IMG/VR virus record: IMGVR_UViG_2778261455_000003
Location: 1 to 40,957 of that record
From: a virus
Taxonomy: Duplodnaviria > Heunggongvirae > Uroviricota > Caudoviricetes
Length of the DNA: 40,957 nucleotides
Strand: one strand, 5' to 3'
Shown: in pieces, positions 27,549-27,815 of the stretch
How positions within the stretch are numbered: the first letter of the stretch is position 1
How the letters are laid out: each line of letters opens with the position of its first letter
Made by a program: the position numbers and the translations under genes
The notes under the pieces: generated by a model
What the model saw: only the letters and a program-made list of their open reading frames with translations
Databases searched by the model: none
What the model was told of the DNA's origin: nothing

Positions 27549-27815
27549 ATGACACACATGATCTTTCGTCATGGCGACATGAAGAAATGGAAAGGCGTTG
27601 GATACGACTTTGAAATCGTGAAAGCCGAAGAGCTTCAGGAATATCTGGATGCTGGCTGGTTTGCACATCCTGATGATCTTCTGAAGGATGTTGCAGAGCC
27701 AGAGCCAGAGCCAGAGCCAGAGCCAGAGCCAGAGCCAGAGCAAGAAGAAAAACAGCGTAAAAAGCCTGGTCGAAAACCTAAGGCGGCAGCAGATGAACCT
27801 GACAACGAAGGGTGA
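27549..27815 (+). CDS. Hypothetical 88-aa protein with internal (Glu-Pro)n repeat
   Basis: [19 protein letters not shown]…; carries …[30 protein letters not shown]… encoded by the hexanucleotide repeat; 3' end overlaps the gp4 start. Confidence 0.4.
27696..27743. repeat. Tandem hexanucleotide repeat (GAGCCA)7 plus one degenerate unit
   Basis: Seven perfect GAGCCA units from 27696 followed by GAGCAA; visible directly in the sequence. Confidence 0.9.

Follow-up and report, generated by a model that had tools for sequence, protein, structure and literature searches.

The window analysed here, a stretch of 40,957 nucleotides, is over its whole length a P22-like prophage that carries an integrase, replication O/P-like genes, terminase, P22 portal, scaffold, coat, gp4 and gp10, in addition to a tailspike with a P22 head-binding domain and an O-antigen acyltransferase. 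In the head region, the P22-type coat (major capsid) gene occupies positions 26209-27504 of the plus strand (PF11651 P22_CoatProtein, E 9.3e-165; phrog_283, major head protein) and is followed, right behind its stop codon, by a terminator-like GC hairpin with a T-run (27510-27536, plus strand), whose stem of 9 pairs spans 27510-27531 in the terminator scan. An equivalent stem-loop, or ‘t coat’, is annotated at the matching place in the P22 and Sf6 records, and the hairpin presumably lowers the expression of the head-completion genes downstream relative to that of the coat. Behind the hairpin, on the same strand and between coat and gp4, lies a small gene encoding 88 residues (27549-27815), which closes at TGA 27813-27815. 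Its GGAG Shine-Dalgarno sequence (27539-27542, plus strand) stands 6 nt ahead of ATG 27549, and the corresponding GGAG of P22 orf69 stands 5 nt ahead of its ATG. The downstream neighbour gp4, the head-tail adaptor or tail accessory factor (27793-28293, plus strand; PF11650 P22_Tail-4, E 1.8e-58; phrog_637), is read in the +1 frame, and its first 23 nt are shared with the small gene. The gp4 Shine-Dalgarno sequence AAGGCGG (27780-27786, plus strand), 6 nt ahead of ATG 27793, is embedded in the K-A-A codons of the small gene, an arrangement that matches that of P22; the gene after gp4 is gp10.

Other reading frames at the locus were considered and rejected. A GTG start at 27501, which would lengthen the small protein to 104 residues, would overlap the coat stop codon and cross the terminator hairpin, and it is ATG 27549, not GTG 27501, that has a ribosome-binding site and fits the start of the family profile. 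A minus-strand ORF at 27300-27962 (220 residues, with LW repeats) is unsupported and overlaps three conserved plus-strand genes, and is considered spurious. A programmed frameshift into gp4 was rejected as well, since the sole A-rich site, CGT AAA AAG, is no X_XXY_YYZ heptamer leading there.

The small gene contains a hexanucleotide microsatellite, (GAGCCA)7 followed by GAGCAA (27696-27743, plus strand), which encodes an acidic (EP)7-EQ spacer, as established by direct reading and by Tandem Repeats Finder. The seven GAGCCA units occupy 27696-27737 and the variant unit occupies 27738-27743, while Tandem Repeats Finder extends the call to 27694-27745, with a period of 6, 8.7 copies, 97% matches and a score of 97. 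This is the second highest-scoring tandem repeat of the 41-kb window, the highest being a 24-nt repeat at 12204-12275. The GAGCCA array is not a product of chance, because the probability of six exact hexamer re-occurrences is about 4^-36 per position. The distance from ATG 27549 to the tract is 147 nt, or 49 codons, in frame, and the residues before (EP)7 are KDVA. With seven perfect copies and one variant copy of a short unit in tandem, the tract has the form of a hypermutable simple sequence repeat. The first-pass annotation had described seven perfect GAGCCA units and one degenerate unit that encode (EP)7 in an 88-residue ORF between coat and gp4, and every detail of this description is confirmed by the sequence, the ORF list and the Pfam matches. 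It had also placed the tract in an upstream extension of the gp4 reading frame. The frame is indeed open over the repeat (27688-27792, plus strand, as SQ repeats; ORF 27688-28293), because (CAGAGC)n has no stop codon, but the biological weight of the extension does not stand. The Pfam gp4 alignment starts at residue 2 of the 166-residue protein that begins at 27793, ATG 27688 has no spaced Shine-Dalgarno sequence, and in P22 the gene 4 ATG is preceded, two codons earlier, by an in-frame TAA. A gp4 with an N-terminal extension through the tract was therefore rejected; the Pfam start at 27793 and the P22 TAA indicate that the open frame is an accident of the repeat, and it is judged non-coding.

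The window protein matches PHROG 1175 with an E value of 1.1e-36 over profile positions 1-72 of 72, and P22 orf69 (NP_059631) matches the same family with an E value of 4.5e-31. The annotation of PHROG 1175 is ‘function unknown’, and its members are labelled hypothetical only. In the P22 record, ‘orf69’ follows the stem-loop behind gene 5 and overlaps gene 4, and its product, MKIAIYKPGGSIMVWGVMAQMKVIDSSELPEYVKDGWLDHPSKLLPVEADDVKPRKGRKPKAVSDADKD, has an N-terminal domain with the pattern G-W-x-x-H-P, a basic tail (RKGRKPKA in P22) and then an acidic end, as in the window protein. The PHROG matches of both proteins and their shared location identify the 88-residue ORF, by sequence and position, as a homologue of P22 orf69, in agreement with the earlier description of the ORF as a small head-region protein of unknown role. 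P22 orf69 differs from the window protein in its length of 69 residues and in its short non-repetitive linker, PVEADDVKP, which contains no EP repeat.

A protein search gave 368 protein clusters as close relatives, and distant relatives with 30-45% identity, all annotated as hypothetical, are found in Salmonella, Citrobacter, Klebsiella, Enterobacter, Yersinia, Serratia, Pectobacterium and others. Coat, small gene and gp4 follow one another in this order in all four distant relatives whose gene neighbourhood was read (Serratia, Salmonella-type and metagenomic phages); the order holds even without an overlap between the small gene and gp4, and also where the genes behind gp4 have no Pfam matches to the P22 tail and ejection proteins that the other loci carry. 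The domain layout, in which an N-terminal domain of approximately 48 residues with an invariant G-W is followed by a basic C-terminal patch, likewise recurs in the alignments A1, A3 and A4, the AlphaFold2 model and the census of tails. Searches of the literature on P22 orf69, on Sf6 gene 6/hkbT and on virion proteomics of P22-like phages returned nothing on this protein.

In Sf6 and HK620, the slot between the coat gene, with its ‘t coat’ terminator, and the gp4 homologue is filled by gene 6 and hkbT (PHROG 3251), which also overlap the gp4 homologue and encode a small protein with a KRGRK basic patch and an acidic/Gly end. However, these proteins belong to another PHROG, have a different N-terminal sequence (G-F rather than G-W) and lack an EP tract, and the comparison of sequences suggests a positional analogue or very distant relative of the window ORF, not a demonstrated homologue.

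Codons 1-47, compared across 59 distinct sequences, have a pN/pS of 0.087 in close pairs and of 0.30 when pooled, whereas the same DNA read in the two shifted frames gives values of about 1.4. The ORF is readable in 196 of the 197 loci with a family match, and the exception, L150, ends at a contig end. The low pN/pS, the conserved ribosome-binding site, the invariant Gly-Trp and the confidently predicted fold indicate that the small gene is real and that the N-terminal part of its protein is under purifying selection. Coding is supported indirectly, by pN/pS, the GGAG ribosome-binding site and the conserved synteny; literature searches found no proteomic, ribosome-profiling or particle evidence for the protein.

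Three parts are predicted in the protein: a folded beta-hairpin/helix domain of 48 residues, then the acidic (EP)n spacer, which is disordered, and finally a basic patch, KKPGRKPK. For the first part, encoded by codons 1-49 (27549-27695, plus strand), an AlphaFold2 model computed from a 65-sequence alignment places strands at residues 2-14 and 17-25 and helices at residues 26-34 and 41-48. The pLDDT is 85-91 for residues 1-40, 71 for residues 41-50 and about 50 for residues 50-88, which are accordingly taken as disordered, and G36 and W37 are invariant in the alignments A1, A3 and A4. The predicted fold has no significant neighbour among the solved structures of the PDB, and among predicted viral structures it matches uncharacterised phage proteins only. 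The C-terminal tail (27744-27815, plus strand) comprises the basic patch and then an acidic end, and its last 23 nt overlap gp4. The charges are -4 for the N-terminal domain, -10 for the spacer, +7 for the basic patch and -4 for the end, which amounts to -11 for the whole protein.

A basic tail is present in nearly all of the 226 family members examined, as PGRKPK in 97, PGPKPK in 67, (K/R)GR(K/R) in 8, RGRP in 5 and another basic cluster in 44. The AT-hook (PF02178) is similarly a short basic Pro/Gly/Arg/Lys patch in a disordered tail, but the window sequence KKPGRKPK lacks the R-G-R-P core. Distant family members carry the canonical KRRGRP(P)K or RRGRPRK, and the best relative reaches 14 bits against the PF02178 cut-off of 17.4. 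Strict membership was rejected, since the window protein gives no AT_hook match and only 5 of the 226 relatives have the RGRP core; judged by its sequence, the window tail may be called AT-hook-like. In two relatives, P0233 and P0143, the basic tail is swapped for a longer, helical-looking C-terminal segment (e.g. LKTAEELAKLTVADLISEL...). By eye, this segment is reminiscent of helix-extension-helix/SAP-type DNA-binding motifs and of the N-terminal end of lambda gpFI, a likeness that no Pfam family supports.

The strand-helix-GW core of the N-terminal domain resembles a module that is repeated five times in P0138, a 428-residue GIY-YIG/NUMOD3 homing endonuclease of the protein library, where it lies between the NUMOD3 motifs of the DNA-binding region. 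The module is approximately 30 residues long (x-Y-K-D-G-x-x-x-V-x-x-x-E-L-Q-x-Y-L-D-x-G-W) and is covered by no Pfam family; it matches the orf69-family core with an E value of 4e-5 in an all-protein search and with an hhalign probability of 95.9% over 27 columns. This likeness is a weak hint that the N-terminal domain may bind nucleic acid.

(EP)n is a known extended acidic spacer motif, and EP/KP spacers occur, for example, in TonB and in trypanosome procyclin. The window protein matches the NCBIfam TonB model with 14.6 bits and an E value of 0.02 against a cut-off of 265, NCBIfam otherwise giving nothing, and the procyclin family Trypan_PARP with 19.7 bits against a cut-off of 100. Both scores are far below the cut-offs, and the resemblance is therefore one of composition only, not of homology.

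The number of units in the spacer varies widely among relatives. In the E. coli lineage, 1-15 units are present in the loci from IMG/VR and GenBank, a set that includes some contigs twice. The locus was found in 217 of 5,426 complete E. coli genomes, and among the matches listed, 89 genomes have an estimated 1-33 units in 21 allele sizes, as judged from the match spans. Long alleles read directly are (EP)33 in strain 98195 (138 residues), (EP)29 in ECONIH6 (130 residues) and (EP)24 in GPEC1446 (120 residues). The allele-size distribution is broad and unimodal, with a mode at 4-8 units. Alleles differ in length by multiples of 6 without exception, and no full-length locus examined has a broken ORF; with every allele in frame, the variation is one of length, with no on/off switching.

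The unit number also changes rapidly relative to point substitution. Among 16 locus pairs whose 2x600-nt flanks are identical, 11 have unequal unit numbers. The same is true of 9 among 12 pairs in which 4,216 nt of flank show no more than 4 differences, and loci with zero differences over the 4,216 nt carry 9, 10 and 13 units; these comparisons are between assemblies, and short-read assembly can get long tracts wrong. Such differences in copy number between near-identical loci are those of a hypermutable simple sequence repeat. The first-pass annotation had anticipated a locus variable in length without frameshift and had proposed a comparison of repeat number across relatives, in which invariance would have spoken against it; the comparison bears out the variability. 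Within the E. coli lineage, 88% of the units are exactly GAGCCA, whereas the repeat is built from GAACCA in another lineage (5 and 10 units) and from GAGCCT in a Serratia prophage. The tract is wholly missing in P22 orf69 and in a lineage with a protein of 62 residues, and the spacer is therefore dispensable for the family.

A protein of approximately 195 residues occurs at the same locus in an E. coli N-01 prophage (L200 744-1343) and also in P0137 and L116 (PHROG 3769). Its N-terminal domain is divergent (33% identical) and is followed by a WDGH domain (PF25311) as an insertion, then by (EP)3 and an unchanged basic tail; the PGAP gene call starts at an internal ATG and covers the WDGH part alone. 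The coat and gp4 of the prophages with this variant are 97-98% identical to those of the window. A divergent 5′ part beside near-identical coat and gp4 genes indicates that the 5′ half of the gene is an exchangeable cassette with its right-hand boundary at the EP tract, and the swap of the N-terminal part counts against a tight co-adaptation with coat or gp4.

These observations point to an in-frame hexanucleotide microsatellite in a genuine late gene, in which slippage drives a fast and weakly constrained polymorphism of spacer length, a reading to which we assign a probability of roughly 0.8. Slipped-strand mispairing in replication would gain or lose whole GAGCCA units, and because the unit comprises two codons, no such change disturbs the reading frame, the basic tail or the overlapping gp4 start. 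Arrays that are homogeneous within lineages and built from different hexamers between lineages are a signature of replication slippage, which we infer from comparisons between assemblies. The (EP)n tract would act as a disordered, strongly acidic spacer that links the folded N-terminal domain to the basic AT-hook-like patch. We propose that changes in its length are tolerated because the length is under weak constraint, and the polymorphism is probably harmless; a near-neutral length fits both the absence of the tract from P22 and the broad unimodal distribution of alleles. The recurrence of EP tracts with different codons could reflect selection for an acidic or stiff spacer, and selection or mutation bias could each account for the mode at 4-8 units. 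Disordered linkers are well known to vary in length through in-frame repeats, and like in-frame VNTR polymorphisms the tract has a short unit in perfect tandem, a copy number whose changes are attributed to slippage, and a frame that is preserved. Classical contingency loci switch genes on and off via frameshifting, which is impossible for a hexamer.

A contingency locus of an adaptive kind would instead have a spacer length that is selected and rapidly tunable, either because it sets the reach between domain and tail or because the acidic tract titrates DNA binding by the tail, and its hypermutability would let a phage population adjust to hosts, defence systems or packaging conditions. The very high allelic diversity and fast turnover are in line with this, as are the retention or re-creation of EP tracts with GAGCCA, GAACCA and GAGCCT in separate lineages, the persistence of (EP)3 in the WDGH-domain variant and the one negative charge that each unit adds beside the +7 patch. 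However, P22 orf69 and the 62-residue lineage dispense with the tract, the allele sizes are distributed as in a neutral microsatellite, and no association of length with coat or gp4 type is seen, which makes selection on length unlikely. A departure in another direction would be that the ORF is not a functional protein gene and serves as a leader or spacer that delivers ribosomes to gp4 past the coat terminator, with the repeat as junk DNA. The overlap of 23 nt with the gp4 start, the gp4 Shine-Dalgarno sequence inside the ORF, the database records that omit the ORF or flag a pseudogene, and a protein for which neither function nor proteomic detection is known could all be understood in this way. 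The difference in pN/pS between the coding frame (0.087) and the shifted frames (about 1.4), the invariant G-W with its confidently predicted fold, and the conservation of family and architecture down to about 30% identity, including relatives without the gp4 overlap, render this reading very improbable.

It is scarcely credible, finally, that the repeat acts at the level of DNA or RNA, whether as a joint for mosaic recombination, as a regulatory RNA, as a frameshift site or by extending gp4 at its N-terminus. The similarity of the WDGH-domain variant to the window does resume at the EP tract, as at a mosaic boundary, but a single mosaic junction is an anecdote. The best Rfam match over the tract is a 14-bit chance match to a snoRNA (E 0.35), with no RNA family or other element found there, and (GAGCCA)n is not self-complementary. 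Although the gp4 frame stays open through the tract, gp4 homology begins at 27793, and in P22 gene 4 is closely preceded by a stop codon; gp4 lies in the +1 frame, to which no slippery site of the type X_XXY_YYZ leads.

With low confidence, and by analogy, the protein may be an accessory factor, itself non-essential, that takes part in head completion or DNA packaging and touches DNA via its basic tail. The analogy is with lambda gpFI, a DNA-packaging chaperone whose gene is flanked by E (major capsid) and FII (head closure), as the window ORF is by coat and gp4, and which is likewise a small two-part protein with an acidic flexible middle. One part of gpFI is reported to bind the capsid lattice and the other to bind DNA non-specifically, so as to bridge the prohead and the terminase-DNA complex in the initiation of packaging (PMC4856287; PMC13595911), and for P22 no packaging accessory factor is known (Table 1, PMC13595911). 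The order of the domains is reversed in gpFI, which has no repeat; hhalign gives no sequence similarity to gpFI (probability 0.5%), and the search of the predicted fold returned no significant PDB match, though gpFI is present in the PDB as 2LSM. The parallel would thus be one of position and layout only, without homology. That the protein is a functional analogue of gpFI, with an N-terminal domain that binds a partner and a basic tail that binds DNA, in which the EP tract acts as a ‘ruler’, a hypermutable tuner of reach or of the electrostatic damping of DNA binding that is under selection, appears decidedly unlikely; if it were true, the tract would be a contingency locus that works by length, not on/off, in a structural module of a tailed phage. 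More generally, selection on length would amount to an unusual length-based tuning in a phage structural module, and otherwise the tract is an ordinary microsatellite in a disordered linker.

P22 is among the best-studied phages, yet to our knowledge no role has been assigned to orf69, although it lies amid the genes of the assembly operon. The family proves to be real, conserved and widespread in prophages of Enterobacterales, with a three-part architecture and a swappable 5′ half, and its spacer in the E. coli lineage is among the fastest-changing prophage sequences. The ORF family was already known as an annotation (P22 orf69), and GenBank marks the tract as a repeat_region in APC_JM3.2, a close relative. 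The literature that could be searched gave no account of how far and how fast the tract varies, of how broad the family is or of its three-part layout. The tract provides a high-resolution marker for the typing and tracking of closely related P22-like prophages, and the natural length variants (1-33 units) can be used to probe the role of the protein.

The tract is also a trap for assemblers and annotators, in that intact long alleles are flagged as pseudogenes. The intact 130-residue (EP)29 allele of E. coli ECONIH6 (L198 745-1137) is flagged ‘incomplete’ (pseudogene) by PGAP, the small ORF is unannotated in the IME10 records, and the automatic calls for the JGI proteins P0013, P0015 and P0032 begin at the upstream GTG, within the last coat codons. 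These annotation problems stem from the repeat and from the small size of the gene.

Elsewhere in the window, the 24-nt repeat at 12204-12275 consists of three tandem units (TGTCTCGAAGTTAGAGACACACAA, 83% matches) inside an ORF at 11827-12672, which encodes a Phage_rep_O replication initiator (PF04492, E 5e-36); by analogy with lambda gene O, these repeats are probably origin iterons. A 21-nt unit is present in two tandem copies at 31107-31148 (86% matches, Tandem Repeats Finder score 61) inside an ORF at 31018-31710 in the ejection-protein region. The tailspike gene (35529-37958, plus strand) combines the P22 head-binding domain with a C-terminal Peptidase_S74 intramolecular chaperone domain, and it adjoins, on the opposite strand, an AT3+SGNH acyltransferase gene (37983-39899, minus strand) that is likely an O-antigen-modifying lysogenic-conversion gene.
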